Positions 42,501 to 59,301 of a stretch of DNA of 64,000 bases are shown here, piece after piece. Under the pieces are notes generated by a model, which was given only the letters and a program-made list of their open reading frames with translations, was not told the origin of the DNA and ran no database searches. Both the position numbers and the translations under genes were made by a program. The stretch covers positions 6,207 to 70,206 of the forward strand of contig JAFXZE010000008.1 in assembly GCA_017541375.1 (NCBI GenBank), written 5' to 3'. This stretch comes from Clostridia bacterium. Lineage in GTDB: Bacteria > Bacillota > Clostridia > Christensenellales > UBA1242. Within the stretch, counting starts at the first letter, position 1. Every line of letters begins with the position of its first letter.

Positions 42501-45500
42501 TATACTCATTCATTCAAAACTGATTTTAGTGGTGTATTATATGGGAATGGATACACATTATCTGGCCTGAGTTATAATTCTAGTGAAAATGTAGATAATT
42601 TTGGCTTGTTTAAGACAATTGATAGCGGACAAGTACACAGCTTTAATATTTCTGTAGGAAATTACATTTCAGCAGCCGACAATTTTGGAGTACTGGCAGG
42701 TACAATAAAAGGTAATTCATTTATTGATAATGTAAAAATATATGAAGGCATCTTAAATGGTAGACAAAATATTGGTGGACTTGCTGCTATAATTGAAGGA
42801 AATAGTTTTGTGCAATATGTTGTTGTACAAAACATATCGATTAATGCATCAGAGGTTCCCAATGTTGGAGAATATTATGTAGGTGGAGTTGCTGGAAAAA
42901 TCGATTTGGATGAAAGTACTGCTAACAGCATAGATAATTCACCACGGATTTATAGTTTGATAGCTCAAGGTGATATAAATTTAACAGGATATGTGGTAGG
43001 TGGAGTAGTTGGTTATATAGGTTCCAACACCGAAACAGACAACATAGCATTATATGTTGAACAATTTGCTAACAGCAAGTTGAAGTCTAATGGTGATTAT
43101 GTTGGTGGAATAGTAGGTAGGTTAGAAGGAACATTGAGTTCGGCCTACTTAGGCGCAAGCATAATTTCACAAAAACAACTAGATGAAAATGGTACTTATG
43201 TTGGATATTTAGGTTTATTCACTGATAATACTTCTTCAGCTGGTGGTTTAGTTGGAATATTAAATGGCGGAACATTACAGTACTCATACAGTAGAGCGGG
43301 CGTAGAAGCCAATACTGCTGCAAATAAGTATAAAGGAAGTATCATAGGAGAGGCGATAAGTGGCTATATAAATGAAATTTATACGATTTCTACACTTGAT
43401 GTTATAGGAAATATAATTAGTTGTGTAGAAGAAAAAGTCGTATTGATATCAAATTCAGCTATTTTAGATATCGATTCGCCTGACTATGTATTTAAAGACT
43501 TCAATGCAAAGAAATGGGTGTTAGAAAATGGGAAATTCCCAACTCTAATTAACAACTATGTGTTTAATGTGGTAATTCCTGAAGATCCAGGTGAAATAGA
43601 TGAAAAAACTTATTTAGATAATGTCATCGCAGCTATTTTAAGTGCTGATTCACACACAACTATAAGCTTAGAGAGGGATATTACTATTACGGTTAGTGAC
43701 GGGCAATACATAGACCCAGATTCTAGCGAAGTGGTCTCTGGTAAGGTGTGGGCATCGATAGAAGATGGTGTTATTAAACTATCCAAATATCAATATACGC
43801 CTTTATCAAATCTAAAAGATAGTAGTCAAAAAGTATTATCAGGCGGGCTAGAGGGACGAGTAGAAGACAATGGTACAATTCGAAACGCAAAGATAACATT
43901 TGTTGGGCTAGATGATAGCTATAATTCGTTCTTTGGTGAACTGAATAACTTTAGCATATTGAATGTGGATTTTGAATTTCAATTTGTTTCAAACACCAAC
44001 ATATCGACCAATTCATTTGGGCTACTAGCAAGTAAAGCAAGTGCTTGTACATTTGAAAATATGTCTGTTGAGTTTAGCAATTTATCATCAATCGAACAAG
44101 AAAATCATTCAATATTTAATGTGGGTATGATTGTTCCAGAGGCAAGTAATTCTGTATTTTGTAATGTAAACATTGTAGGGCAAACAGATTTGATAATATT
44201 TGATGATACTTATGTAAATATTGGTGGATTGGTTGGTAAAAATACTAATGAAGGATATAGTTTAACATTCTCTATTATTGATGTTTCAAATCTAAGATTG
44301 AGTGTTACTAATGCTGGAGGAAGTGGGACAAGCTCTAATCTGCAAGTTTCTCTTGGTGGAATCATAGGCTATTCCAGTGAAATGGTGTTGATAGAAGAGT
44401 GCAATGCTATATCAAACTTAACCTGTACATTGGGTAACTATAGAAATACGAGTGAAGTTTACATAGGTGGAATGATAGGATATACCGGAGTGGAAAATTC
44501 ATACATAAAAGAATATTTCACTCAAGCAAGCGTTCCTAATATTATTGTTTCTATAGATTCAACTAACCCAACACTTTATGTAGGAGGATTAGCTGGTTGG
44601 TTCGCGGGCGAAGTATTAGAAAATCGTGTCGCATCCGAGATTATAATTACTTCTACTTTATCCAATCCAACAGATATGGTAGTTGGTGGAATAAGTGGAT
44701 ATATTTCCAATACTTATAGGCGAAGTGTTATCCCAGTACAAAACAATAGTTATAGTGGAAGTATTCATATAGTAGGCAATGGTGCAATCAGTTGTGGCGG
44801 AATTTTTGGGCAATATGATATGAAATTTAATGCTGATAACTCTAATACTGAATGTACGATGCTGTATAACACGACTTTTAGTGGTAGCATATCTATAACT
44901 GATGGAGGAAATAACGCCGTCAGCACATACGTAGCCAATACTTATGTTGGTGGAATTTTAGGCCAGAGCAATACAATTATTTCTTCGCAAGGAATAAAGT
45001 TTGATTTGTTTAAAGTTACTAATGCCATAATAGAAGATAGTGCAAATATTGCGATAAATTACTCTACAGCAAGCAATGATATAACAGTTTATGTTGGCGG
45101 TCTAGCAGGAAAAACTGACAGTATGTTATATTATAATACATCGAAGGCTAGCATAAATGTAGTTCGAAATTCGGCTGATGATGAAAAGACATTCATCGGT
45201 GGACTGGTCGGAGATATGCAAAATAGTTCCCATCAAGATAACGAAGTGATTTATTCAGTTAATGTTTCAAATGTCTCTACTTTAAATATAAAAGTTATGT
45301 TTGCCAAACTTATAGATAGCGCTGATGTATTAGGTAATGTGACTTCTATTGAGTTTATTCAATATAATTATAGTTATACTCTAGACCCTAAAAACAAACT
45401 TAGCATCAACGAGTTAGGTTTAAACAATTATTTTGTTACAGATAATCTGAGTGTATATTTATACGAAAACAAAACTAAATTGTTGTTTGTAGGTGAGGGG

Positions 45501-46097
45501 AAAATTATTGCAAAGGAAAACTTAAATAATTTGTTTGTGCGAATCATACCCAAAATAGAGCAAATTCAATCTATCAAGACGGAGCAATTAGATACTAGTG
45601 AAGTAACAAGCATGGCAAGCATGTTCTATGGATGTAGTGGGCTTACATATCTAGATATTTCTAATCTAAATGTAGCAAAAGTTACTTCTATGAGTAAATT
45701 ATTTGCTTATTGTGGTAACTTGACTAATATAAAGTTTGGCAACAATTTTGGTATTAAAGCAACCAACATGAGTTATATGTTCTATAGATGTTCTAGTCTG
45801 CAGAACTTGGATTTGAGTAATTTTAGTACTGATAAAGTGACTAATATGAGTTATTTGTTTGCTTATTGTAGCTCACTTTCTAGGGTTTATTTGTCAAGTT
45901 CATCTGGGTGGACTACGACAAGAGTATCAAACAGTAGTGACATGTTTAAGGGGTGTAGTGCCTTAGTTGGGTATTATAAAGATGAAGAAAATTATGAATA
46001 TACTACAACATATAGCTCTAGTCATGTAAATAAAGATTATGCAAAGATACGTACACAAACTGAAGAAGGGTACTTTACAAGTTTGTTATTTAAGTGA
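33528..46097 (+). CDS. Giant (4189 aa) putative surface lipoprotein: lipobox, Big_2-like Ig domains, four blocks of GLUG-type repeats, C-terminal DUF285/BspA-type 26-residue repeats
   Basis: Uninterrupted 12.57-kb ORF. N-terminal LTIVIGMVTWFSGC (lipobox-like). Big_2-like ..TIKVIAKGAGETTLTIKT.. Dozens of xIGG(V/L/I)(V/A)G(Y/F/L) motifs at about nt 36980-38080, 41140-42020, 42595-43350 and 44015-45220. C-terminal TSMASMFYGCSGLTYLDISNLNVAKVTSMSKLFAYCGNLT... at about nt 45590-45975. Confidence 0.85.
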   Translation: MKYKFCVYLFLTIVIGMVTWFSGCGDQYSKLKIVVSTSELTFDLDNDDASEYEATFTATVDGASKDMVSGLILELSDQTVASASVISAENNKYTIKVIAKGAGETTLTIKTKESAKVCYEGFKIIVSKTAESLSSVTQKFSIKRGDELKLSLDEMLRVYPERIYPAIATFSILPTPSEVRADEELSVLERETIAALWDEQYGDSRLLGLSVKDNVLIASPECDVGVLQILAEVNGLYSTFPVLVYEKIESIQIYEVERDEFNNWVALAEDPTLNVHLATNASVAKKYAVVLDNQLNTTQFRVDEIFDETNKLTIAQLEELEIRGKTYTCFSVGGFNGGETVLRINVDLLYVNDNEQAEVFTTIQKDFPVKIDTAVSGIDLKCSDGVFDEINQVYNIQSAYAANLLGEKFTVELSPKAATDPSFSLGVASDMQGLVSVYVSTDDFVEKPSGKAETVKYDWQASSAIRLRGNSVIYIKYEGNENAAKNFDITIFAGFANECEATFSFKVVDAVKSLSVSSDDIKLVLGNDISQADGGMLLTVSAATTQVDTVLKISSSVDVVNIKESTEYGRTPSNGVLTINYEITAKAEGRTVIEISSLSGYSCRIVCNCYLAVDKSIAKLYVQDQTKNNIINVDSATLIGNELNLSMRKGKTIDIGYQMFENYYDESFKEHSYYFENISVSKEIESDVYEETFGYISVDSSEIITKHSFKLTPNQAAENQKFKIELTIGFVKKSGNTWSEDSVTLKILLDVISPIKDMSWARVIDSEPATFECIGQYNTATLYPKNEIYRDDESYHAEFYFAYDSLIDTDIGVEYSIDLDSNELAYAIDLENVLSNSQSLLNCTKLTLTFLKWPEDNTQQALDLKITIVTMKFREIKQLSCYVSLKHPLKVNELKLAGAKKHAVIFGEDDSEIYQERDMELNSSNMTTAGNETTYSFAINKLAGAERFDEIELLINVSPLNALNTQYGMYVKNSINGQFNPPIKDYFKFENNRIIYQKIDDKDFTGLVTIYIYPLDHEVDGVEVNDQIIRNGTDLENPTPWPFIKIELSICNGSQGNPYQIYDANDFLDIYSLSNSRVPNRLHRYVLKNNIDLSKLYMEKSELTQNRLAQIGSFFEFQDILESESKNGFSQRYAVSGIRLNKVVSDEDNKNYVGLFSILSGSITNVNFNVDMDFATESTINVDYLGLLAGKVKNKLGDYENYTDYKNISGVKVQGSLLDIKIGGVNTDLIYIGGVAGLVDNNVEIERLKFSGIIDLNLAANGRVGGMFGKSNSSIDNISNNTEFSQQSIELNVYASPNTLTDVAIGGLVGEFAGAMISNVGVAGKVYAPTLDRVGGVVGFNDGGNLVNIKTTANVVGHSNVGGVVGYNSNSGVLTAVYAENYVSDTMFEYALARGYSNIGGIIGYSEGGEISYSYVQTFAYRMFKKLSISTQADYVGDVWGTVNVGGLVGFAQDITILSCFANINIQLNWIGDDPKNLGGLIGCCEGGKIQHAYANCRTFKGGNSSNVGQLIGKLSGYVQTEGFVNVLGSEIKDVYGYVFEENINVLVGRDLSWVGEIILTYTADDDEITIPHSFDMVDYYFVSEEAIENIVGITNRNHEELQNINLRYRLPVEHDEGDVEKWLEGVDDENDYLPRLTKEDGSQLNPPPVESLTITPKIIENIPEDEDVTTAGVSVFDNGGPIGLIIDLAYRDGEDNGILLGQIAEIKIEKLGASTEVDITSSNPSVVSLILDENEHNYNFESNRILPKAIGASTITVVSRATPSIKAMLYINVICSSGFGVKKNAEDIVGISIINDGSENISSYNYNVRINESQVLQGYYLNNGSYEQNNNVEYGYIVDDDETILSATQNYTINVDETKIVGVKAYWVLDFGGEKFISEFSSDIIFFTFNPYYPIQNFDVSCTDATPSSGESTRFVARVEAEYVGDINISYSVTGDHVEYIDKVQVLVVDSSTPSKYKELRVEVYLNDEYKAISSPLEYKFTFKATTQYEAESSEKDIDISFLPTNVNKVNLSFYTKGLEMLEKGEEMPSLSISTTEMGVLMIEVVQDYADFDYCVIYPLVSDGDVSIQQLVKKYDENLLPQIHNLETTYIDGGVFIGKYSELIGVNFAPFSGVMYARVLIGGKFVEGDTCPIQVKLFKNGNIEVASAQIVLVTDFVSHATLTLDQSTQSSYIDNTVGLGTQARLVLNGEFRNCVLNRLDILDNAGSSILATGLENALDKCYISFKNLNNLGSAGREVVNRELWLYVGPGISESVTYITVVLNYTQQSVADKLPYSLIVKLKLYLVAYQVISATVTNLDNGALVVQTQTPADLIAMLNCLEPDYEVYKNYVATPVAQNDFNEAVEVIKAKLKTAESQLNICYNGILIWEYKPFNGNYTKINLPTQGNKINYGDFYIQMRNGDSNEYLNYVIEGINTVSDLSFKLRFKFGYSEQVLVRIKDGDTESGLVNNQAKEIDFEFKVNIIGGTVINTHPTPISSASEFRSIVNGGSYILSRDIDLGSDWEPLDLVTQNGNSLTLDGNGFIIKVSGFKVDDNKNNIGVFSTIGSNVVLTNLIIDVDINVIDLQQHSSINFGFLAGSNQGIIYNCDVLTTSLGEVTVINGAKEEAMAASTNDEFNNQNQTAEQLLVETNPTKYSVYIVVSKNTISNMGGFVGVNDGYITNCRVGRLTENSTKLKGTDKQVTQGINIFGYGNLGGFVGVNNRTISNSYYKNGDIINYARSSATTGGFVARNSGSGLIFGCFVEGRRADGSRQPRCEYGGVRAVVGTVGGFVHNNSGKIENSYSNIRLIGASIYVGGFVYNNFTTSRIANCYTACEVDESNVSTGVFIGRDRTGRIMQENGAEITNSYYYTDQLVASNPQKEYVTPVDLKGWSDRTGKSFTGFVFGQNGVNCVWQFDNLHSSFGPQLSFADTIYYSHRDITNNYAYSVGEGLGTRYNPILITSFNEENSYSSWASVFENNAIIGADNSRKVPNGVYISLLRDITFVGREEYTHSFKTDFSGVLYGNGYTLSGLSYNSSENVDNFGLFKTIDSGQVHSFNISVGNYISAADNFGVLAGTIKGNSFIDNVKIYEGILNGRQNIGGLAAIIEGNSFVQYVVVQNISINASEVPNVGEYYVGGVAGKIDLDESTANSIDNSPRIYSLIAQGDINLTGYVVGGVVGYIGSNTETDNIALYVEQFANSKLKSNGDYVGGIVGRLEGTLSSAYLGASIISQKQLDENGTYVGYLGLFTDNTSSAGGLVGILNGGTLQYSYSRAGVEANTAANKYKGSIIGEAISGYINEIYTISTLDVIGNIISCVEEKVVLISNSAILDIDSPDYVFKDFNAKKWVLENGKFPTLINNYVFNVVIPEDPGEIDEKTYLDNVIAAILSADSHTTISLERDITITVSDGQYIDPDSSEVVSGKVWASIEDGVIKLSKYQYTPLSNLKDSSQKVLSGGLEGRVEDNGTIRNAKITFVGLDDSYNSFFGELNNFSILNVDFEFQFVSNTNISTNSFGLLASKASACTFENMSVEFSNLSSIEQENHSIFNVGMIVPEASNSVFCNVNIVGQTDLIIFDDTYVNIGGLVGKNTNEGYSLTFSIIDVSNLRLSVTNAGGSGTSSNLQVSLGGIIGYSSEMVLIEECNAISNLTCTLGNYRNTSEVYIGGMIGYTGVENSYIKEYFTQASVPNIIVSIDSTNPTLYVGGLAGWFAGEVLENRVASEIIITSTLSNPTDMVVGGISGYISNTYRRSVIPVQNNSYSGSIHIVGNGAISCGGIFGQYDMKFNADNSNTECTMLYNTTFSGSISITDGGNNAVSTYVANTYVGGILGQSNTIISSQGIKFDLFKVTNAIIEDSANIAINYSTASNDITVYVGGLAGKTDSMLYYNTSKASINVVRNSADDEKTFIGGLVGDMQNSSHQDNEVIYSVNVSNVSTLNIKVMFAKLIDSADVLGNVTSIEFIQYNYSYTLDPKNKLSINELGLNNYFVTDNLSVYLYENKTKLLFVGEGKIIAKENLNNLFVRIIPKIEQIQSIKTEQLDTSEVTSMASMFYGCSGLTYLDISNLNVAKVTSMSKLFAYCGNLTNIKFGNNFGIKATNMSYMFYRCSSLQNLDLSNFSTDKVTNMSYLFAYCSSLSRVYLSSSSGWTTTRVSNSSDMFKGCSALVGYYKDEENYEYTTTYSSSHVNKDYAKIRTQTEEGYFTSLLFK

Positions 46098-48810: not shown

Positions 48811-49836
48811 AACCCCAAATCTTGTGAGAACTTCATCAACAATTGTATGTGAATGTGATGCTATATCGTTTGCAAAAATATAGCTTTGATTATCTTTTCC
48901 AAGGATAGTAACATAATCATTTACTTTCATTTGAGGTGATGCCTCAATAATACTCATATTCATGCAAATGTCCGCTACAAAAGGGCATTTTTTATCTTTA
49001 TATAAGACCCAACCAGATTGGGCCCACGCATAGGGTAGCCCATCAGCATAGCCAATACTTAGAATGGCAACAGACATGTCTTTAGGTGCTTTGTGATTGC
49101 TGCCATAGCCAATATATTCATCTTTTTTTATTTTTTGTATTTTTATTATTCGAGCTTGAATAGATAGTACTGGGGTTGTTTTTGGATGGCCATATCCATA
49201 TACCCCAGCCCCAATCCTTACCATACCCAAGTAGTTTACTTGGCGCCAATACTGTGTATTAAAGAGGTGGAATATTGTTTTAGTAATGCAAGAAGTTAAA
49301 TCGTTAAATTGGGCGATTTGTGCTCGAGTACGAGATTTATTTGCACCATCGCCAAGATGGGAGTATACACTACTCAAATTTAAATATTTATTTTGTTTTA
49401 TTATAGCTAACATACGAAATATATCTTTTTTGTTACTTATTCCCAAGCGATGTAATCCAGTGTCTAGTTGTAAGTGTATGGAAATTGTTTTTTTTAGATT
49501 TTTAGCGATAATTTCTATCATTTTGAGTTGGGTGATATTATCAACACTAATTTCGACATTTTGTTGTATAGCTGTAATTAAATTATCAAAGTTACAAGAG
49601 CCGAGCACAATTATATGTTTTTTAGTGATTTTTCTCAAATTGATAGCTTCTTTATTATCAATTACAGCAAAGTAGTCCACATAATTTTCGATTGCCTTAG
49701 CTATTTTATTTAATCCATGACCATAAGCATTACTTTTTATGACAGCGCATAGTTTTGTGTTGTGAAGGTCAGCTTTTATATTTAAAATATTGTTTTTTAG
49801 AGCGTTGTAGTCAATCGATTTTATAATGTTTTTCAT
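48796..49836 (-). CDS. alr: Alanine racemase
   Basis: PLP-Lys motif AVIKSNAYGHG. AAGGAGG RBS before the ATG at 49836 (track start 49905 unlikely). The 3' end overlaps holA by 15 nt, convergently. Confidence 0.9.
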   Translation of the reverse strand: MKNIIKSIDYNALKNNILNIKADLHNTKLCAVIKSNAYGHGLNKIAKAIENYVDYFAVIDNKEAINLRKITKKHIIVLGSCNFDNLITAIQQNVEISVDNITQLKMIEIIAKNLKKTISIHLQLDTGLHRLGISNKKDIFRMLAIIKQNKYLNLSSVYSHLGDGANKSRTRAQIAQFNDLTSCITKTIFHLFNTQYWRQVNYLGMVRIGAGVYGYGHPKTTPVLSIQARIIKIQKIKKDEYIGYGSNHKAPKDMSVAILSIGYADGLPYAWAQSGWVLYKDKKCPFVADICMNMSIIEASPQMKVNDYVTILGKDNQSYIFANDIASHSHTIVDEVLTRFGVLSTD

Positions 49837-49937
49837 TGCTCCTCCTTGAGTGTAGATTATTCCAAATGTAGAATTTATGTGAAAGTAGGGGAGTTTTCTT
49901 GACAAAGCATAAAAAAAACTATATAATCAAACTACTT

Positions 49938-50024
49938 GGAGAGGTGTCAGAGTGGTCGAATGTGCCGGCCTCGAAATTCGGTATGCCAAAAGCATCGAGG
50001 GTTCGAATCCCTCCCTCTCCGCCA
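49938..50024 (+). tRNA. tRNA-Ser (anticodon CGA), class II with long variable arm, encoded CCA
   Basis: Hand fold: acceptor GGAGAGG/CCTCTCC, T-arm GAGGG-TTCGAAT-CCCTC, variable arm ATGC-CAAAA-GCAT, anticodon loop CTCGAAA. One mismatch each in the D stem and anticodon stem. Confidence 0.8.
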
Positions 50025-50059
50025 GTAGAAACCAATTTGAACCGCAGGGTTCTTTTTTT
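50019..50059 (+). repeat. Left copy of a perfect 41-bp direct repeat (last 6 nt of tRNA-Ser plus its terminator)
   Basis: CCGCCAGTAGAAACCAATTTGAACCGCAGGGTTCTTTTTTT, identical to 59217-59257. Confidence 0.95.
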
Positions 50060-50138
50060 AGTTTTTGCGATAACTAAGAGATTTTTAGGCAAAATTATAG
50101 TTAATTTGTCTTATTATCATTTTAATAAGTTAAGTTTG

Positions 50139-50167
50139 TTGACAAAAAAATAATTATATGTTATCCT
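50139..50167 (+). promoter_or_regulatory. Candidate promoter of the peptide/radical-SAM operon
   Basis: TTGACA-17 nt-TATCCT (consensus -35, weak -10). Confidence 0.45.
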
Positions 50168-50191
50168 TCTACTTGAAGGAGGATTTGCGCT

Positions 50192-50251
50192 ATGGCGAAA
50201 AGAATTACTTTAAAGAAAATGACGATTTACACAAGTTGCATGTCAACCTAA
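50192..50251 (+). CDS. 19-aa candidate RiPP precursor peptide MAKRITLKKMTIYTSCMST, absent from the ORF track
   Basis: GAAGGAGG RBS 9 nt upstream of the ATG. Basic N-terminal half and a Thr/Ser/Cys/Tyr-rich C-terminal half. Directly upstream of two radical-SAM genes. Confidence 0.6.
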   Translation: MAKRITLKKMTIYTSCMST

Positions 50252-50263
50252 TTTAAGCCACAG

Positions 50264-50297
50264 CTAAATTCATCATTTGATGAGTTTAGTTTTTTTT
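50264..50297 (+). terminator. Strong intrinsic terminator/attenuator between the peptide gene and the maturase genes
   Basis: 11-bp stem CTAAATTCATC/GATGAGTTTAG (one G-U pair), 4-nt loop, then 8 T. The RBS of the next gene starts right after the T-run. Confidence 0.8.
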
Positions 50298-50307
50298 AGG
50301 AGATGTT

Positions 50308-51213
50308 ATGGTTTTATTTTTTATTATTCACACAAAATGTGATTTATGCTGTAAAGATTGCTTTTATTCAAAAGGATATGAAAAAAGGGATTCTAGCGAA
50401 TTAAAGCTAGAAGATATAGAATTATTTGTTAAAAAAGTTTACGACTTAAGTTTTAAAACAATTATTCTGACTGGAGGAGATCCTCTTTATTCAAAGCGTA
50501 AATATGTTACCTATGCATTAATCGAATGTTTAAAAAAATACAAGTTAAGAGTTATAATTAATACTAGTGGCGCAAAATTGAATTCTATCGATATACAAAC
50601 TTTAATCAACTTAAATGTTGATAGAATAGATTTTTCGATTAATTCACTTGATGAAAATATTCATAATTCTGAACGAGGAAATTATCAAGACACTGTTTTT
50701 GCGATGAAAAGTCTTTTGAAAAATGGGTATGATAAAATCACTACTACTACAGTTATAACAGAAGAAAATGCGTATAAAGCACTGGAAACACTTCGATGGT
50801 TAAAATCTTTAGGTATAAAAGACATAAGATATCAACCTTTATTTAAACAAACAGCCCAAAATTATCAAATAATAAGAGATGCAATGTTGGAATGTAATAA
50901 AGAATTTGGTAATTCGCATTCAGAGTATTATTTATTACAGTGCGATAGAGCATATAATAACAAAATTCCTCAAGAGAATTCAGTATGTATGATGGGGAAA
51001 AATTTATTTGTAAGTGATGCATTAGGGAATATTTATCCTTGTTTTCATCGATTCGATGTAAATTTTGGAAATATCTTTACAGATGATACTTCATTTTTAA
51101 AGGACAAATTAATACATAATAGTTTTTATTCAGAAAGGCATGATTGTTTTGGTAAACATTGTGTTTCATTGTTCGATAACGGTGATTTTTGGAAAAAGGA
51201 AAAAGTTTTATGA
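50308..51213 (+). CDS. Radical SAM enzyme with C-terminal twitch/partial-SPASM-like Cys cluster
   Basis: CDLCCKDC (CX3CX2C) at residues 11-18, GGDPL, C-terminal CMMGKNLFVSDALGNIYPC...CFGKHC. Confidence 0.85.
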   Translation: MVLFFIIHTKCDLCCKDCFYSKGYEKRDSSELKLEDIELFVKKVYDLSFKTIILTGGDPLYSKRKYVTYALIECLKKYKLRVIINTSGAKLNSIDIQTLINLNVDRIDFSINSLDENIHNSERGNYQDTVFAMKSLLKNGYDKITTTTVITEENAYKALETLRWLKSLGIKDIRYQPLFKQTAQNYQIIRDAMLECNKEFGNSHSEYYLLQCDRAYNNKIPQENSVCMMGKNLFVSDALGNIYPCFHRFDVNFGNIFTDDTSFLKDKLIHNSFYSERHDCFGKHCVSLFDNGDFWKKEKVL

Positions 51214-52487
51214 AAAAGTACGTATACCCCTACAAGATATTTACAAATGAAAAAGTAATGTATCATTTTAATGTGGATAAGTTGTATATAACAGAAGTTA
51301 ATAATAATCATTTAGACTTATTGAATAAACTTGCTCAATTTGATTACGAAGAAGTGCAAGCTAACATTTTAGATGAGGAGCAAAAACAGTGTCTGAACGA
51401 TTTGATTGAATTTGAAATGATAACTGATGAGCAACCTAATATAAAAGAGCCAACTGTAGTTTGTAAACCTACTTCCTATCGTATAGTTTTAACGGAACAA
51501 TGTAACTTAGCCTGTGTTGAGTGTTTCGCAACAAAAAATATTAATTGTTTGAAAACTATGGATAGCGAAACACTGTTTGAGGTGCTTGAATATTCGTTTA
51601 AGAATAATAACAATAAATCTACACAGTATTGTTTTTTTGGTGGGGAACCTTTAATAAAGTTTGATTTAATAAAAGAAGCTGTTGCTAAAATTGAAGAAGC
51701 AGAAAAGAATCATTTAGTAAAGAATCCAGTTTTATTGATTACAACAAATGGAACGATATTAAATGATGAAATAATTGATTTTTTTATTGATCATAATGTA
51801 AGAGTAGGCGTGTCTATTGATGGTCCTAAAGAAATACACGACAAATTGCGACCATATAAGGATTTACGTGGGACTTTTGATGATGTAAAAGAAAACTATA
51901 TGAAAATGTATAATAAAGGAGTTAATCTACATGTTTTAATTACTCCTAATCCTGATTTTTTGGGTAATCTAAAAGATATTGTAAAGTATGTGCTTGAAAA
52001 TTTTCCAATGAAAGAATTGACAATTAATACCCCCTTTAAATACGATACTTTGCAATGGTCCGTTGATGGAGAAAAATATGCTCATATATTATTTGATATT
52101 TATAAATTAACCCAAGAATTTGGCGTTATCCTCGATTCTGCATTGTCGGTAGTGTTGGGGAGTATATCAAATGGCATTAGAAGACAAACTCCGTGTTCTA
52201 TTTTAGGAGATGAATTTATGACTTTGGTTACTCCTCATGGGGAAATGTCAAGATGTGCACAAAAATATGATTCCCAAATTTCTTTGGGAAACATCAAAAA
52301 CGTGAGTGTATCGGATAATTGTAAGAATTGTTATGCATACGGTTTTTGTGGTGGAGTATGCCCTGCATATAAGGTTTTGTCTGGTATGTCTACTGATTCA
52401 AACAAGTGTAAATTTATGCATGCTATATTACCTAATTTAATAAATTATTTAAAAATGTTTGAGGAGACATCTGATGATCTTCAGTAA
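51210..52487 (+). CDS. Radical SAM/SPASM peptide maturase with ~95-aa N-terminal (RRE-position) extension
   Basis: CNLACVEC (CX3CX2C), GGEPL. Complete SPASM signature CSILGDEFMTLVTPHGEMSRC...CKNCYAYGFCGGVC (CX2CX5CX3C). ATGA start/stop overlap with the upstream gene; an alternative start exists at 51189. Confidence 0.85.
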   Translation: MKKYVYPYKIFTNEKVMYHFNVDKLYITEVNNNHLDLLNKLAQFDYEEVQANILDEEQKQCLNDLIEFEMITDEQPNIKEPTVVCKPTSYRIVLTEQCNLACVECFATKNINCLKTMDSETLFEVLEYSFKNNNNKSTQYCFFGGEPLIKFDLIKEAVAKIEEAEKNHLVKNPVLLITTNGTILNDEIIDFFIDHNVRVGVSIDGPKEIHDKLRPYKDLRGTFDDVKENYMKMYNKGVNLHVLITPNPDFLGNLKDIVKYVLENFPMKELTINTPFKYDTLQWSVDGEKYAHILFDIYKLTQEFGVILDSALSVVLGSISNGIRRQTPCSILGDEFMTLVTPHGEMSRCAQKYDSQISLGNIKNVSVSDNCKNCYAYGFCGGVCPAYKVLSGMSTDSNKCKFMHAILPNLINYLKMFEETSDDLQ

Positions 52488-53637
52488 AGATATGTTTTTT
52501 ACAACCAAGTTTATTGATAGTGATCCCATATATGTAAAATTAGAAAAAGCAGGGTATATTAAACAAATAAGCTCTGGTATATATGCTTACTTAGAGCTTT
52601 TTAATAAATTATTAAGTAATATCTGTAATGAGATAGGTAACATATTTAAAGAATACAACATTAGTGAAGTTAAAATGCCTCTGTTACAGGATGCTAATTT
52701 ATGGAAAAACTCTGGGCGATTTGACATTTATGGTAAAGGTTTGTTTGTTACGGGGGAAAATGCTGAATATGTTTTGAGTGCAACAAGCGAAGAGGCGATT
52801 ATTAAATTGATAGATCTATTAGGGATTGAAGAGAAGCAATTACCATTTTGTGTATATCAGATTTCAGAAAGGTTAAGGAATGAATTACGTACTGCTTATG
52901 GTTTATTTCGAACAAAAACTTTCACACTAGCAGATTGTTATGCGATTGTCAATAATACAAATGATTTGGCACATTATACCCATATATTTAAAGAAATTTT
53001 TCACAAAATAGGTGTAAAATTTAATTTGGCACTGCATGAGGCTATTCACTTGGGACACAACCAGACCATTTCCATTTGGTGTAATTCAAAACTAAATCAA
53101 AGCCACCCCATAGTATGCAAAAATTGCAATAATTCATTTCGTAATAAATCTTTAATTACTAAATGTCCTATATGTAATTCTGCTAATGTAGCACGAGCCG
53201 TGGGGGCTGAAATTGGTGATATAGCAACAATACAGCAACTAATTAGTACAAAAAAAATTAATAATACTCATATTGTTACAATGGGAATTGGGTTAACTAG
53301 GCTTATTCAATTAATTGCAGAGCAAAAAGTATATAAAAATGGCTTTGATTGGGATTATTGGTATGCTCCATACAAAGCATATATTGTGGCTAGTAATGAA
53401 AGGAGAAACGAGGCACAAAAAATATATGACATACTAAATAGTAAGATAGATGCTCTTTTCGATAATAGAGCAAAAAGTATAGCCACGAAACTAATAGATG
53501 CTGATTTGATCGGTTGCCCATATAAAATCATATTAGGTAATAATACATGTATCGATACGGTCGAAATAAAAAGAAGTAATAAAATGTTAAAACTAAAAAG
53601 TGAGCAAGTTTTAAAATATATATTAGATAATAGATAG
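52474..53637 (+). CDS. Minimal bacterial-type ProRS-like class II aaRS paralogue: no INS editing domain, CxxC...CxxC insert, degenerate motifs
   Basis: AGYIKQISSGIYAYLELF, MPLLQDANLWKNSGRF and LRNELRTAYGLFRTKTFTLADCYA align with the motif 2 region ([25 protein letters not shown]). MGIGLTRLIQLIAEQ is motif 3. An HGTP-type anticodon-binding domain follows (YKAYIV...LFDNRAKS...DADLIGCPYKIILG). The 14-nt overlap with the upstream gene has a GAGGAG RBS. Confidence 0.75.
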   Translation: MIFSKDMFFTTKFIDSDPIYVKLEKAGYIKQISSGIYAYLELFNKLLSNICNEIGNIFKEYNISEVKMPLLQDANLWKNSGRFDIYGKGLFVTGENAEYVLSATSEEAIIKLIDLLGIEEKQLPFCVYQISERLRNELRTAYGLFRTKTFTLADCYAIVNNTNDLAHYTHIFKEIFHKIGVKFNLALHEAIHLGHNQTISIWCNSKLNQSHPIVCKNCNNSFRNKSLITKCPICNSANVARAVGAEIGDIATIQQLISTKKINNTHIVTMGIGLTRLIQLIAEQKVYKNGFDWDYWYAPYKAYIVASNERRNEAQKIYDILNSKIDALFDNRAKSIATKLIDADLIGCPYKIILGNNTCIDTVEIKRSNKMLKLKSEQVLKYILDNR

Positions 53638-53664
53638 TTGAAATAACTAGTTTAGGAGAATAAA

Positions 53665-55092
53665 ATGAATAAACAAAGAGAATTAGTAAAAAAAGATAAC
53701 ATGGCAGAGTGGTATCAAAATGTTATAGAAAAGGCTGATTTAGCCGAACATTCACCAGTAAAAGGCTGCATGACCATAAAACCTTATGGTTATGCTATTT
53801 GGGAATTAATAAGAAATGAATTAGATATTTTAATAAAAAAACATGGGGCAAAGAATATGAGTTTTCCTCTTTTTATTCCTTATTCATATTTGTCAAGAGA
53901 GAAGGATCATGTTGAAGGATTTAGTCCTGAAATTGCTGTGGTTACACACGCTGGTGGTAAAAAATTACAAGAACCTTTGGTCGTTCGACCAACGTCCGAG
54001 ACGATCATTCATGAAAGTATGAGGAGATGGATTTATTCATATAAAGATTTGCCCCTAAAGTTGAATCAGTGGTGTAATGTTGTGCGTTGGGAAAAGCATC
54101 CTCGTTTATTTTTAAGAACTTCCGAATTTCAATGGCAGGAAGGGCATACTGCACATGCAACGGAACAAGAAGCACGACAAGAAGTGGAAAGTATGGTTGA
54201 ACTTTACTACAATTTTATTAAAGATGTTTTAGCTATTCCTACAGTAAAGGGACAGAAATCAGAAAAGGAAAAATTTGCAGGAGCGGTTGATTCATATAGT
54301 GTAGAGGCACTTATGCCAGATAATAAAGCTGTTCAAATGGGAACAATTCATTACTTAGGTTTGAATTTTTCAAAAATAGCAGATGTGAAATTTGTAGATG
54401 AAAGTGGTGCTGAAAACTTTGTATATATGACAAGCTGGGGAGTTTCAACAAGGCTCATAGGGGCATTGATAATGACTCATGGTGATGATAAAGGATTAGT
54501 TCTTCCACCGAAAGTAGCACCAGTTCAAATTGTTATTGTACCTATTGGTAATACTTTAGAAACAGCGCAACGCTTATTTAATGAATTAAACAATAGTGGT
54601 TTTAGAGTGGAGTTAGATGATCGTCAAGATGTGCGACCAGGAGCTAAATATTTTGAAAATGAAATGAGAGGTATTCCTGTCAGAATAGAAATAGGTGAAA
54701 GGGAAATTGAGAATAATGAAATACAGTGTGTAAATAGAGTTACAGGAAAGAGGACGGTATTATCACTTGGTTCAGATTATATACAATCTATAAAAGATTT
54801 ATTACAAGAAATTCAATCTACACTTTTAAAAAATGCAACAGAAAGAATGAGAAATAGCGTGGTAGAAGCGAAAACAAAAGAAGAATTTTCCGATTTGATA
54901 GAAAACCAAAAGGGTTTTATAAAAGCTTGTTGGTGTGATGAAAAAGAATGTGAAGTAAGCATTAAAGATAAAACTGGAGCAAATAGCAGAAATTTACCGT
55001 TTGCCGAAAACGAAAAAGAATTGACTGATTGTACTTGTGTTTGGTGTGGTAAAAAGGCTAAGAAAATTGCATATTTTTGTAAAGCTTATTAA
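53665..55092 (+). CDS. proS: Prolyl-tRNA synthetase, archaeal/eukaryote-like type (full length, with C-terminal Zn-binding domain)
   Basis: EWYQNVIEKADLAEHSPVKGCMTIKPYGYAIWE, RPTSETII, FLRTSEFQWQEGHTAH, SWGVSTRLIGALIMTHGDDKGLVLPP. C-terminal CWCDEKEC...CVWCGKKAK...KAY ends in the conserved terminal Tyr. Confidence 0.9.
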   Translation: MNKQRELVKKDNMAEWYQNVIEKADLAEHSPVKGCMTIKPYGYAIWELIRNELDILIKKHGAKNMSFPLFIPYSYLSREKDHVEGFSPEIAVVTHAGGKKLQEPLVVRPTSETIIHESMRRWIYSYKDLPLKLNQWCNVVRWEKHPRLFLRTSEFQWQEGHTAHATEQEARQEVESMVELYYNFIKDVLAIPTVKGQKSEKEKFAGAVDSYSVEALMPDNKAVQMGTIHYLGLNFSKIADVKFVDESGAENFVYMTSWGVSTRLIGALIMTHGDDKGLVLPPKVAPVQIVIVPIGNTLETAQRLFNELNNSGFRVELDDRQDVRPGAKYFENEMRGIPVRIEIGEREIENNEIQCVNRVTGKRTVLSLGSDYIQSIKDLLQEIQSTLLKNATERMRNSVVEAKTKEEFSDLIENQKGFIKACWCDEKECEVSIKDKTGANSRNLPFAENEKELTDCTCVWCGKKAKKIAYFCKAY

Positions 55093-55110
55093 TAACTGGG
55101 GAAAATATTT

Positions 55111-56214
55111 ATGAAGCCATATAGTCTAAATAAAAATGATAAGATAGCAATAATTTCTCTATCGGGTGGAAGTTTAGGAGAAGCATACAATAAGCCAATA
55201 GTTGAATTGGGTATAAAGAGATTAAAAGATTTGGGTTTTGTCACTGTTTTTACACCCAATAGCCTAAAGGGTATAGATTTTTTACATAACAATCCAAAGG
55301 CACGAGCCGAAGATTTAAAGGCGGCTTTTAGGGATGATAGCATTAAAGCAATTCTATGTGCAATTGGTGGGGATGATACAATACTAACGATTCCATATCT
55401 ATTAAGTGATAGTGAATTTATTTTAAATGTAAAAAAGCATCCGAAAGTTTTTTTCGGATACTCGGATTCAACAATAAATCATTTAATGTTTTGTAAGTTA
55501 GGATTACAAACATACTATGGAATAAGTTTTATAACAGATTTTTGCGAATTAGCGCCCAATATGATTCCTTATACTTTAAATAGTTTTGTAAATTTTTGTA
55601 ATAATCCAAAAGCCTTTTCCATTACGCCAAGTAAGTATTGGTATAGGGAAAGAGATGATTATTCAATCAAGAATTTAGGATTTGAAAGAATTGCTGTTGA
55701 AGAGGAGCGAGGATACATCTTTTTTAATAGTATGAAAAAAGTAAAAGGTGAATTATTTGGTGGTTGCATAGAAATCTTATCTGCTTGTTTGGGAATAATA
55801 GACAAAGATTGGTTTTATCATAAAGAAATTGTAGATATTTTTTATAAGATTGCCGATAAATTTAAGCTTTTTCCGACAAAGGATTATTTGAAAGGCAAAA
55901 TTCTATTTCTAGAATCAAGTGAGGTGTTTATTAAACCTGAAAAATTGAAACAATTTCTATTGAAACTTGAAGAATTGGGAATACTAGCAGTTTTGAATGG
56001 TATTATCGTATCAAAACCTATGGAAGAAAAATATTTTGATGAGTATTTATCTGTTTATAAAGATGTATGCTCAAAATATAGTTTTCCTGTAATATATAAT
56101 TTTAATTTGGGGCATTCATGTCCGAGAAATATATTGCCATATGGTGTTAAATGTGAAATTGATCCTGTAAACAAGACGATTAGAATAGTCGAAAAAATGA
56201 CTTGTGACAATTGA
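55111..56214 (+). CDS. Peptidase S66 (LD-carboxypeptidase / MccF-like serine hydrolase), long 367-aa form
   Basis: IAIISLSGGS, nucleophile elbow GYSDST, C-terminal NLGHSCPRNILPYG (catalytic His region). The length fits the MccF-like rather than the short LdcA-like subgroup. Confidence 0.8.
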   Translation: MKPYSLNKNDKIAIISLSGGSLGEAYNKPIVELGIKRLKDLGFVTVFTPNSLKGIDFLHNNPKARAEDLKAAFRDDSIKAILCAIGGDDTILTIPYLLSDSEFILNVKKHPKVFFGYSDSTINHLMFCKLGLQTYYGISFITDFCELAPNMIPYTLNSFVNFCNNPKAFSITPSKYWYRERDDYSIKNLGFERIAVEEERGYIFFNSMKKVKGELFGGCIEILSACLGIIDKDWFYHKEIVDIFYKIADKFKLFPTKDYLKGKILFLESSEVFIKPEKLKQFLLKLEELGILAVLNGIIVSKPMEEKYFDEYLSVYKDVCSKYSFPVIYNFNLGHSCPRNILPYGVKCEIDPVNKTIRIVEKMTCDN

Positions 56215-56259
56215 GCATTTATCTATCTAGTTAAGCCTATCTTGCGCCGCCAATTTTTT

Positions 56260-56281
56260 AGGAGCTTCGGCTCTTTTTTTG
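56260..56281 (+). terminator. Intrinsic terminator ending the operon
   Basis: AGGAGC-TTCG-GCTCTTTTTTT (short stem, UUCG loop). Confidence 0.6.
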
Positions 56282-56470
56282 TTATTTATGATAAAGACAC
56301 TTACTTAGCACCTATACCCACAAACAAAAGCAAATATATAAGGAGATAGGATATAAACTTTTTGTAAATTAATTTTTAATTAGAAATTTTGTCGTCTATA
56401 AACTGGGGTTTAGTTGCTAAAAATTTCTGTTTATGCTATATTAAGAGAAAACAAAAAAGCGAGGTAAAAA

Positions 56471-58843
56471 ATGAACAAAGAAAACGGTGTGCTAAGTGGA
56501 CCGATTACAAAAGAGGAAATAGAGTTACTCATTTCCAATCCAAAGAAGTTTTGGGAAGGAGTAACCAAGATTGATAAGAGGACTTTTAAGGGCTGTATCT
56601 CTCTAAAGGACATAACTATTCCCGATAGTATAACAAGTATTGGTGACGGAGCATTTGATGACTGTGACAGACTAGAAAGTATTACTATTCCTGAGAGTGT
56701 AACAAGTATTGGTAAGTCGGCCTTTTATGGATGTAAAAATCTCAATAGCATCAACATTCCCGATAGTATAACAAGTATTGGTGAAGATGCTTTTTCGGGT
56801 TGTGAAAGTCTAGAGAGAATTACTATTCCTGATAGTGTAACAAGTATCGGCGATGGTGCTTTTTTTGGTTGTGAAAGACTAGAAAGTATTACTATTCCTG
56901 AAAGTGTAACGAGCATTGATGATTATACTTTTCTGAACTGTAAACAACTCAATAGTATCATCATTCCTAATAGTGTAACCAATATTGGATACAAAGCGTT
57001 CGTTGGGTGTACGAGTTTAACTAGTGTAACAATCCCAAATAGTGTAACAAGTATTGGAGCAATGGCTTTCAGTAGCTGTAGTGGATTAACCAGTGTAACA
57101 ATACCCAATAGTGTGACAAGTATTGAATACCTGGCTTTCTGTAGGTGTACTAGCTTAACCAGTGTAACAATACCTAATAGTGTAAAAAGTCTTGGAAGTA
57201 GGGCATTCGAGATGTGTACTGATTTAACCCGTATTACTATGCTGATGGGAATTAGTTGTGGCTCTGATTCTGTTGAGTGGGATAAGTTTAAATTTATACA
57301 ATTTCATGAAGATGGAAAAAACTTAAGCCTACTAAGCTCTCCACCGAAAAATGCTACAAATTGCATCGCTGCATCTCCAGACACCATGTTTAAGTGTGTC
57401 ACAAGTAGAAATTATGGAAAAAATACCATTAAACAGCAAAAGTTAAATCAAGAATTGGAAAAGCAGGGGCGCAAACCACTAAAATTGCCTGATTTTATGC
57501 TAGATACTTTTCCGCACGAGCAATTTAACAATATCTTTTACAACAATAATATCACTAGATGGCGAAATTTAGTGAAAACTCTTGAATTTGATAAATTACC
57601 AGATACCAAAAAAAATAATAGCCTAACCGATTTGTTGAAAATATATTATGCCATAGGTGGTTTTTCCGAGGTTCAAAGCGATAGTATAAGTGCATATAAC
57701 TATATTCTAGAGCACGTTGTGTCGAAAGAAGCTACATCTAGCGCAAACGGAGATTTTATTCACAAAGCGTTTTCAAAAGTGCAACTTGAAGGGCCGTATA
57801 ATAAAGATTTTGCTAAATTTTTTATGATGTATTATGATGACCCAGACTTCAAGCGGTTTAATCTCAAAGATGAAGATGATATGTTTATCGATTCGAAGAG
57901 CTTTTGTTGGGAGGCAGCCCACAACTCGTTTGGAAGAATTCAAAAAGATTTCCCAGGTAAGGTTGTAAGTGGCACAACTGGCAGGGAGGATTTATTGGAT
58001 CCACCATTTGTGATGAAGCATAGTATAATAGTTCAATATGAGAATGTTGAGCCAGGGAATGAATCGTTAGCTGAGTTAGTGGGGCGGTATGGCTATACGC
58101 AAAGTCAGTTTGAGTATATTCAGACCATCTACAACTATGCCAAAGCGCACAAAGATGAATATGTTATCATGGCTGACAAAGCAAATGAAGATGATCCAGT
58201 GAAATTTAGAGCGTTAGCAAAAGATGATCCTCTTGGTTTTGTATTGGGTGATATCACTAATTGTTGCCAACACATTGGGGGAATGGCACAAAGCTGTGTG
58301 GACGATGGATACAAAAATCCTAATGCAGGTTTTATAGTATTTGAAGAAAGTATACTAGATGATAATGGATTAGACACAGGAGAAAAGCGAGTGTTAGCAC
58401 AAGCCTACGTGTGGTATGACCCAGATACCAAGACAGTTTGCTATGACAATATTGAAATACCGGATAAGATTTTGGCAAAATTGCGCAAGGGAGATAAGCA
58501 TGGCAGCCTGATATCGGCAAAATCTTTGATTAGTGCAGTGGAAAAATCTGCTGAGTCAATAATACTTGCGATGAACAGAAAAGGAATTGAGGTAGAGCGA
58601 GTAACCACAGGAGAAGGGTATAATGACTTGAAGAAAGAATTGCAATCAAACTTTCCTCGAGAAAGTCCACCAAAATCGAAGGGCCCTAAAGGTGTATATA
58701 CAGATGCAAAAACAGCCCAATATATACTTTCTACATATGACAAAGTGACCAAGAAATATGGCGGTATAGTAAAGGATGCTCTAAAAGAGGCGACAAAAGG
58801 CCTAAGTGAAATAAAAACAGCCACTCAAGGCCGACAAGCATAA
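56471..58843 (+). CDS. BspA-type (LRR_5) leucine-rich-repeat protein without signal peptide, ~500-aa uncharacterised C-terminal domain
   Basis: About 8 repeats of ITIP(D/E/N)SVTSIG..AF.GC..L.S. The N-terminus MNKENGVLSGPITKEEIELL is hydrophilic. No motif recognised in the C-terminal region (..GDITNCCQHIGGMAQSCVDDGYKNPNAGFIVFEE..). Confidence 0.8.
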   Translation: MNKENGVLSGPITKEEIELLISNPKKFWEGVTKIDKRTFKGCISLKDITIPDSITSIGDGAFDDCDRLESITIPESVTSIGKSAFYGCKNLNSINIPDSITSIGEDAFSGCESLERITIPDSVTSIGDGAFFGCERLESITIPESVTSIDDYTFLNCKQLNSIIIPNSVTNIGYKAFVGCTSLTSVTIPNSVTSIGAMAFSSCSGLTSVTIPNSVTSIEYLAFCRCTSLTSVTIPNSVKSLGSRAFEMCTDLTRITMLMGISCGSDSVEWDKFKFIQFHEDGKNLSLLSSPPKNATNCIAASPDTMFKCVTSRNYGKNTIKQQKLNQELEKQGRKPLKLPDFMLDTFPHEQFNNIFYNNNITRWRNLVKTLEFDKLPDTKKNNSLTDLLKIYYAIGGFSEVQSDSISAYNYILEHVVSKEATSSANGDFIHKAFSKVQLEGPYNKDFAKFFMMYYDDPDFKRFNLKDEDDMFIDSKSFCWEAAHNSFGRIQKDFPGKVVSGTTGREDLLDPPFVMKHSIIVQYENVEPGNESLAELVGRYGYTQSQFEYIQTIYNYAKAHKDEYVIMADKANEDDPVKFRALAKDDPLGFVLGDITNCCQHIGGMAQSCVDDGYKNPNAGFIVFEESILDDNGLDTGEKRVLAQAYVWYDPDTKTVCYDNIEIPDKILAKLRKGDKHGSLISAKSLISAVEKSAESIILAMNRKGIEVERVTTGEGYNDLKKELQSNFPRESPPKSKGPKGVYTDAKTAQYILSTYDKVTKKYGGIVKDALKEATKGLSEIKTATQGRQA

Positions 58844-59106: not shown

Positions 59107-59216
59107 AAAATGTAGTACGTTTTTTTATGTTTTAGGTGGAAGGAAATAATATGAGTAATTTTGATAATTTGGCTTAAATACCAAAGAAAGTCGGTTCTTA
59201 TTATACACCTCTTGCG

Positions 59217-59257
59217 CCGCCAGTAGAAACCAATTTGAACCGCAGGGTTCTTTTTTT
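59217..59257 (+). repeat. Right copy of the perfect 41-bp direct repeat (tRNA-Ser 3' end plus terminator)
   Basis: Identical to 50019-50059. Also acts as a terminator hairpin GAACC-GCAG-GGTTC followed by T7. Confidence 0.95.
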
Positions 59258-59301
59258 GATGTTTAAGTTTTAAATAGAGTTGTAAAATTTTTTGTTTTTG
59301 G

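Follow-up and report, generated by a model that had tools for sequence, protein, structure and literature searches.

A conserved nineteen-codon gene as the probable substrate-peptide gene of an operon of radical-SAM enzymes and an aminoacyl-tRNA synthetase paralog

In a stretch of 64,000 nucleotides from a Clostridia bacterium (contig JAFXZE010000008.1; hereafter the window, numbered from its first letter), an open reading frame of only 19 sense codons lies 56 nt 5' of a gene for a radical-SAM protein, rSAM1, on the same strand and thus co-oriented with the maturase genes. The question raised by this locus is whether so short an ORF is a gene at all and, if so, what its product does beside a second radical-SAM protein (rSAM2), a paralog of prolyl-tRNA synthetase (ProRS), a full ProRS and an S66 peptidase. 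The comparative analysis reported here indicates that the ORF is a genuine gene and that its predicted product is most likely the substrate peptide, either a precursor or a scaffold, of this six-gene operon.

A first-pass annotation of the window had described an unannotated 19-codon ORF with a strong ribosome-binding site at 9-nt spacing, and a direct reading of the sequence confirmed this description (Table 1). The product, MAKRITLKKMTIYTSCMST, comprises a basic leader (KRIxLKK) followed by a conserved core (T-S-C-M-S-T). The ORF is absent from the gene calls on all four of the metagenome contigs examined that carry the region. Upstream of it lies a tRNA-Ser gene (49938-50024) which has its own terminator at 50039-50052, and the small ORF therefore belongs to a separate transcription unit. 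The predicted promoter of that unit was obtained from a consensus scan and matches at 10 of 12 positions. On the downstream side, the same annotation had placed a terminator with an 11-bp stem and a T8 run against the ribosome-binding site of rSAM1. The T8 run (50290-50297) and its abutment stand, as it is followed directly by AGGAG (50298-50302) and then by the rSAM1 start codon at 50308, but the stem has 13 pairs, two of them G-U (50262-50291; -14.3 kcal/mol for the hairpin alone). When the right arm of the terminator is omitted from the fold, the Shine-Dalgarno region (50175-50190) pairs with the left arm (50263-50274) at -19.5 kcal/mol, a possible translation-sensitive antiterminator in the folding model.

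Table 1. Features of the predicted operon and its signals, in window coordinates
Feature	Coordinates	Strand	Evidence or remarks
Sigma-70-like promoter (predicted) for small ORF and operon	50139..50167	+	TTGACA, 17 nt, TATCCT with upstream TG
Shine-Dalgarno sequence GAAGGAGG	50175..50182	+	9 nt 5' of the ORF ATG; read from sequence
Precursor/scaffold peptide gene (predicted)	50192..50251	+	ATG 50192-50194, 19 sense codons, TAA 50249-50251
Intrinsic terminator/attenuator (predicted)	50262..50297	+	13-bp stem, 4-nt loop, T8
rSAM1, 301 aa	50308..51213	+	PF04055, PF13353 (Pfam); C-terminal Cys-rich (partial SPASM/twitch-like) region
rSAM2, RRE-rSAM-SPASM peptide maturase (predicted)	51210..52487	+	Radical-SAM domain; ATG overlaps rSAM1 stop (ATGA)
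ProRS paralog	52474..53637	+	PF00587, PF03129; bacterial-type catalytic core and anticodon-binding domain
Archaeal-type prolyl-tRNA synthetase, full	53665..55092	+	TIGR00408, 558 bits against a cut-off of 437
S66 serine peptidase, MccF-like branch	55111..56214	+	PF02016, PF17676
Terminator-like hairpin and T-run closing the operon	56260..56282	+	Sequence scan

Homologous loci were collected from the encoding contigs, GTDB genomes and JGI metagenomes, starting from relatives of rSAM2, which forms a tight and small family. A short ORF was found directly 5' of rSAM1 in all 21 homologous loci examined, that is, in every locus with both rSAM1 and rSAM2, and these loci span Clostridia-like gut MAGs, Saccharibacteria, Moranbacteria, Uhrbacteria and archaea. 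Representative products are MAKRICFKKIKLYTSCMST (locus L001), MKKRARRIKIVAVKPHTSCLSG (L003), MKKTRRIKIAVVKPRTSCASG (L007, Nanosyncoccus), ...KARRIQLKPQKPRTSCQSG (L009, Moraniibacteriota), ...KARRIRLAAQKPRTSCQSG (L015, Uhrbacteria) and MKIKQKEIKLKIESHKTCGSI (L017, an archaeon). The 19 bacterial loci share a basic leader, K-A-R-R-I-x-L, which is joined to the core by a variable linker. The C-terminal core is fixed throughout the 21 loci as [T/S/A]-[S/A]-C-x-S-[G/T/A/H], with T/N-C-G-S-I in the archaea; the Cys always stands four residues from the C-terminus, the Ser two residues after the Cys, and the last residue is Thr, Gly, Ala, His or Ile. The earlier division of the peptide into a leader half and a core half thus holds in so far as conservation is bipartite, but the conserved core is restricted to the last 6-7 residues (Y-T-S-C-M-S-T in the window). 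In four loci that are more distant and in which rSAM2 precedes rSAM1, the peptides read ...C-M-Q-S-G-G... and carry a C-terminal tail. None of the NCBIfam models matches the peptides.

The substitution pattern of these ORFs is that of a coding sequence. Depending on the locus, the Ser before the Cys is encoded by AGT, AGC, TCC, TCA or TCT and the Cys by TGC or TGT, in peptide loci whose GC content ranges from 26 to 58%, and between the window and the loci nearest to it (L001 and L006) the changes in the core are synonymous while those in the linker are non-synonymous. Since serine codons switch between the AGY and TCN classes, selection is placed on the protein and not on the DNA or RNA. A comparison of synonymous with non-synonymous change among homologues had been proposed as a check in the first-pass annotation, and its outcome, seen in the AGY/TCN and TGC/TGT exchanges and in the synonymous third positions, points to the protein level. 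Shine-Dalgarno sequences precede most of the homologous ORFs. The claim that the short ORF is a precursor-peptide gene 5' of radical-SAM enzymes is supported in that it withstands the refuting condition named in the first-pass annotation, loss or interruption of the ORF in related loci: conserved, intact copies occur all the way from Clostridia-like MAGs to Patescibacteria and archaea. The further claim of a terminator between the precursor gene and the enzymes agrees with the presence of a hairpin 3' of the ORF stop codon in 15 of 15 loci examined (the window and 14 others), accompanied by a T-run in most. In L006 (2710-2989), an uncultured Clostridia MAG and the closest GTDB relative, this hairpin is split and duplicated by a highly structured insertion of approximately 240 nt, possibly a small mobile element with the hairpin as its target.

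The two radical-SAM proteins encoded next provide the main clue to what happens to the peptide. rSAM1 is rare: in a set of 1.84 billion representatives, no more than 21 clusters (50% identity) were matched at E<=1e-30. Its archaeal orthologs match the SPASM family PF13186. The AlphaFold2 model of rSAM2 (pLDDT 90) begins with approximately 70 residues that form three strands and three helices in the RRE topology, and it superposes over its full length on the sactisynthase CteB (5WGG; TM 0.72, the best match, followed by TigE and anSME); 5WGG is also the best PDB match by sequence. rSAM2 therefore models as a CteB-like RRE-rSAM-SPASM peptide maturase. The Saccharibacteria homologues lack most of the N-terminal domain, with matches beginning at residue 87, so that leader binding by an RRE cannot be universal in the family. 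In NCBIfam, rSAM1, rSAM2, the paralog and the S66 protein all score below every curated cut-off. The best scores to thioether families were 128 bits for PapB (cut-off 340) and 90 bits for SCIFF (cut-off 425), which places the maturase outside the curated thioether-forming rSAM/SPASM families, and because both radical-SAM proteins score far below the curated cut-offs, their chemistry is not transferable from any known enzyme. The thioether chemistry proposed in the first-pass annotation is nevertheless compatible with the CteB-like modelled fold and the single invariant Cys. Assignment to a known defence system was considered and rejected, since PADLOC returned only a weak viperin-like similarity, to the radical-SAM core.

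It might be argued that the ORF encodes a small basic protein which acts unmodified, as a partner that binds RNA or tRNA or by regulating the synthetase paralog, while the radical-SAM enzymes act on some other substrate. The bacterial leaders are indeed unusually basic for RiPP leaders, and by NCBIfam scores rSAM1 is about as weakly related to the cofactor- and nucleotide-type enzymes MoaA, NirJ and AhbD as it is to peptide maturases. Moreover, the annotated flanking genes of the cassette loci are unrelated housekeeping genes and include no exporter or leader peptidase; given the lack of an exporter there, a secreted antibiotic is not an obvious product. Against this reading stand the modelled structure of rSAM2, which is that of a peptide maturase with an RRE, and the invariant Cys/Ser motif, which keeps the same spacing to the C-terminus, as modification sites typically do. 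The peptide gene is in addition always immediately 5' of a radical-SAM gene, namely rSAM1 in the 21 loci and rSAM2 in the four reordered distant ones. We consider an unmodified protein improbable and a substrate of the two enzymes the better description.

On the gene content of the loci, the most unusual feature of the cassette is its obligatory aminoacyl-tRNA synthetase (aaRS) paralog. The peptide, rSAM1 and rSAM2 genes are always accompanied by a divergent class-II aaRS paralog in a gene order that is kept across phyla, often together with a full aaRS of the same specificity and a peptidase of the S51, S66 (MccF-like) or MftE-like type. In the window paralog the INS editing domain is absent and a Zn-ribbon segment of approximately 60 residues takes its place, with the CxxC...CxxC ribbon kept. 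Scoring 202 bits against a cut-off of 558 and 181 against 307 in the proS models, and without the editing domain, the predicted protein would not be classed as a canonical prolyl-tRNA synthetase. Its structural model matches the ProRS of E. faecalis (2J3L, TM 0.77), and comparison with 2J3L and with family alignments shows that it retains the equivalents of E. faecalis T109, E111, R140 and E142 as well as the motif-3 Arg, residues which we take to hold the alpha-amino group, the carboxylate and ATP in class-II synthetases. The conserved G-H/N/T segment that follows the insertion reads G-D-V/I in the paralog.

Loci of the ProRS type are arranged as (S51), peptide, rSAM1, rSAM2, ProRS-like, ProRS, (S51 or S66), and most other loci have an S51 peptidase in place of the S66 enzyme. 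Two loci (L008 and L091) carry the same peptide and radical-SAM genes beside a divergent paralog of the AlaRS catalytic domain and a bona fide AlaRS catalytic domain, and in two others (L096 and L098) the AlaRS-like paralog alone adjoins the cassette. A class-IIb-like set is formed by archaeal L017 (an AspRS-like paralog with an AspRS-type enzyme, an S51 peptidase and a creatininase/MftE-like protein), archaeal L018 (a LysRS/EpmA-like paralog with an MftE-like protein) and L102 (an AsnRS/AsnA-like paralog). PheS-like paralogs occur in L094, L099 and L101. The one in L094 (1197-2339) has an anticodon-binding domain of the ferredoxin fold and comes nearest to a curated name, with 253 bits in the NCBIfam model NF051887, 'PheS-related mystery ligase SrmL' (cut-off 300). 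Curators have thus already marked out a related ligase whose function is a mystery, and the literature searched yielded no paper about it.

The core of AlaRS-type L091, TSCQSG, is exactly that of ProRS-type loci, which argues that the amino-acid identity is contributed by the paralog and not by the peptide, whose core would be a common handle. For the same reason the idea that the residue before the Cys encodes the specificity of the aaRS, suggested by the Ala that precedes the Cys in L008, was rejected. A special tRNA, along the lines of pyrrolysine, was likewise rejected, as no consistent tRNA adjoins the cassettes. The 'full' AlaRS in the two AlaRS-type loci (L008 4931-7616; L091 8448-11149) is only 433 aa long and consists of the catalytic domain without the editing or C-Ala domain, and it may represent either the split AlaRS usual in these Patescibacteria or a form peculiar to the cassette.

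The six genes of the window operon (peptide, rSAM1, rSAM2, ProRS paralog, ProRS and S66 peptidase) lie on one strand with overlapping or short junctions, and start/stop overlaps couple rSAM1 to rSAM2 and rSAM2 to the paralog. The S66 protein gave its best PDB match to an MccF-like structure (4E94, E 5e-88), with E. coli MccF at 1e-16 and LdcA reaching only 7e-8. The full ProRS adjoins the paralog in most of the related ProRS-type loci and lies directly downstream of it in all except L092. A neighbour-joining tree, built without bootstrap on a sample picked by similarity to the window ProRS, groups all cassette-linked ProRS (from Saccharibacteria, 'Bdellovibrionales' MAGs and the window lineage) in one super-clade, apart from the ordinary Clostridia ProRS and from another Patescibacteria ProRS. 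This topology fits a transfer of the ProRS gene together with the cassette. Three ProRS genes closely related to that of the window (64-75% identity, those at 72-75% among them) are found away from any cassette, in housekeeping surroundings, so that the operon ProRS may simply be the only ProRS of the cell and not an extra, protected copy.

Gene calls or reading frames were broken in two places. In one metagenome sample of the same organism, the S66 gene (L172 13715-14818, corresponding to window 55111-56214) was called as fragments of 117 and 242 aa, and its DNA is 99.93% identical despite the split call; a frameshift or pseudogene variant is possible. In the Moraniibacteriota MAG (L009 6510-7912), the cassette-linked ProRS matches in two pieces, with residues 9-270 at 70% and 272-475 at 39% identity, and no long plus-strand ORF spans both of them, which may be due to a frameshift or an assembly error.

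Possible traces of insertion surround the operon. The 3' end of the tRNA-Ser gene with its terminator (window 50010-50066) is repeated 9198 nt downstream at 59208-59264, over 57 nt at 88% identity with 40 nt exact. A 12-mer resembling the tRNA 3' end, CTTGCGCCGCCA, directly follows the S66 stop codon (56241-56252) and recurs at the second repeat (59211-59222), with 0.04 matches expected by chance. From these repeats, the tRNA-Ser locus looks as if it had received two insertions one after the other, the first of which would be the 6.2-kb segment from the peptide gene to the S66 gene. The segment contains no integrase. The GC content of the radical-SAM genes is 28-30% against 33-35% in the flanks. 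The region is bordered by genes for a DUF285 protein of 4189 aa (33528-46097) and a BspA-type LRR protein of 790 aa (56471-58843), the latter gene with 69-nt tandem repeats at 56562-56975, and a further protein of more than 5000 aa is encoded downstream on the source contig. It may be speculated that such giant surface proteins hint at a host-associated lifestyle.

The terminator invites another explanation of the ORF, as a regulatory leader peptide whose translation controls termination by attenuation and tunes the operon, including proS, to proline or charged tRNA-Pro. Its stop codon lies only 10 nt before the terminator stem, a ProRS gene is located downstream, and the truncated fold allows pairing between the Shine-Dalgarno region and the terminator's left arm. 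However, none of the 19 codons of the window ORF is a proline codon, and what is conserved is the C-terminal S-C-x-S and not a run of regulatory codons. The same core moreover occurs with cassettes of the AlaRS, class-IIb and PheS types and in loci without a full aaRS downstream, the distance from stop codon to hairpin varies among loci, and an Rfam scan of 49000-57000 at E<=1 detected only the tRNA-Ser, with no T-box or other leader family. Attenuation is accordingly given very little credence here. That the ORF is a chance product of AT-rich DNA, in which short ORFs are frequent, and that the region is only a structured leader RNA or a plain terminator, as the omission of the ORF by gene callers could suggest, is effectively refuted by the comparative data, namely protein-level conservation across phyla in divergent DNA of widely differing GC content and the switches of serine codon class, to which the lack of an Rfam match and a fold z-score of only -1.9 for the whole leader may be added.

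With a substrate peptide as the preferred reading, the cassette can be set beside the systems that it most resembles. It shares with the sactipeptide and ranthipeptide systems (CteA/CteB, PapA/PapB) a short precursor beside an RRE-rSAM-SPASM maturase and a Cys in the core, and rSAM2 is nearest to CteB in both sequence and modelled structure. It differs from them in its single-Cys core, in having two radical-SAM enzymes, in scores far below the PapB and SCIFF cut-offs and in its obligatory aaRS paralog, a partner that to our knowledge has no counterpart in sactipeptide or ranthipeptide systems.

Microcin C (mccABCDEF) is made from a precursor that ends in Asn by MccB, an E1-like adenylyltransferase, and its pathway includes an MccC-type exporter and yields a product that hits an aaRS. 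The window operon resembles it in that a terminator separates a very short precursor gene from the genes for the enzymes, in its S66 peptidase of the MccF type and in a possible link to an aaRS. Unlike microcin C, the operon has no MccB, as no ThiF/E1 domain is present in any of its proteins; its precursor lacks the C-terminal Asn, there is no MccC-type exporter, and radical-SAM enzymes and an aaRS paralog are found instead.

The mycofactocin (MftA-F) and PQQ pathways, in which a cofactor is built on a scaffold peptide, likewise involve a short peptide whose C-terminal motif is invariant, an RRE-bearing rSAM-SPASM enzyme and a dedicated peptidase, without an exporter, and the peptidase of our cassette is creatininase/MftE-like in archaeal L017 and L018. 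The core is nevertheless S-C-x-S, with one variable residue, in contrast to V-Y or E...Y; an aaRS paralog is present, and all scores are below the family cut-offs. The MftC model TIGR03962 gave 35 bits for the window rSAM1 and 60 bits for its L094 homologue against a cut-off of 265, and it was absent among the 25 best listed matches of rSAM2, while the MftE-like protein, confined to L017 and L018, reached 127 bits against a cut-off of 172.

Two further comparisons concern the addition of an amino acid. In the PEARL pathways to 3-thiaglutamate and the ammosamides, an amino acid is similarly added to a ribosomal scaffold peptide, tailored and released. PEARLs, however, are LanB-like and use aminoacyl-tRNA; none is present here, and the candidate adding enzyme is the class-II aaRS paralog. 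In EF-P beta-lysylation (EpmA/EpmB), as in amino acid:carrier-protein ligases, a class-II aaRS paralog aminoacylates a protein and not a tRNA. EpmA also works with a radical-SAM enzyme, EpmB, and the L018 paralog weakly matches the EpmA models. The acceptor in our cassette would by contrast be a dedicated peptide of approximately 20 aa, the paralog types differ, and the ProRS-like paralog keeps its anticodon-binding domain.

A sequence of events can be proposed from these elements. Transcription would begin at the promoter near 50139-50167, and most transcripts would end at the hairpin and T8 run that follow the ORF, so that a short precursor mRNA would be abundant, with read-through transcripts expressing the translationally coupled enzyme genes. 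A terminator at the mccA-mccB junction, and in many lanthipeptide operons, similarly leaves precursor mRNA in excess and lets some of the transcripts through. The RRE domain of rSAM2 would hold the basic leader (K-R-I-x-L-K-K), and both radical-SAM enzymes would modify the invariant C-terminal core (S-C-x-S). The ProRS paralog would then activate an amino acid, either proline or a close analog, and join it to the core or to a core-derived product, an activity suggested by the conserved residues and the gene linkage, with EpmA and amino acid:carrier-protein ligases as analogues. The S66 peptidase, or its S51 or MftE-like counterpart elsewhere, would trim, release or detoxify the product, and the co-transcribed ProRS would serve as a protected target or as a supplier of Pro-tRNA. 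Taken as a whole, the assignment of the ORF as the substrate-peptide gene of the six-gene operon, together with these proposed events, is in our judgement a highly probable explanation of the locus.

A bolder reading, possible if rather unlikely, is that the peptide serves as the scaffold for an undescribed class of ribosomal-peptide-derived aminoacyl conjugates, in which an amino acid is loaded by the paralog and locked in place by the two radical-SAM enzymes, and the product is processed by the dedicated peptidase. If that were true, a class-II paralog of the Pro, Ala, Asp/Asn/Lys or Phe type would load its amino acid on the invariant Ser/Cys core and the product would be an amino-acid-specific inhibitor or effector of the matching aaRS, with self-protection provided by the full aaRS from the same transcript and by the hydrolase, MccF-like or S51. 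The module would then be exchangeable between specificities and would have spread horizontally among Patescibacteria, gut Clostridia-like bacteria and archaea.

No description of a peptide system that combines radical-SAM enzymes with an aaRS paralog was found in open-access papers or bioRxiv, and there is none in Pfam, NCBIfam, Rfam or PADLOC. The finding is a new RiPP-type precursor, and it is the aaRS-paralog partner that sets the cassette apart within this kind. Without the peptide gene, the operon would read as two orphan radical-SAM genes and a duplicated ProRS. Once the peptide is recognised, at least some 25 loci can be grouped as a family, and a signature for mining is available that consists of the basic leader, the C-x-S-G end and the terminator. 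The aaRS paralogs of four specificities point to a joining of peptide and amino acid without PEARL enzymes or ATP-grasp ligases. The family may also point to natural, modular production of aaRS-directed molecules by organisms whose genomes are tiny, the Saccharibacteria and other Patescibacteria, which are thought to be poor in specialised metabolism.
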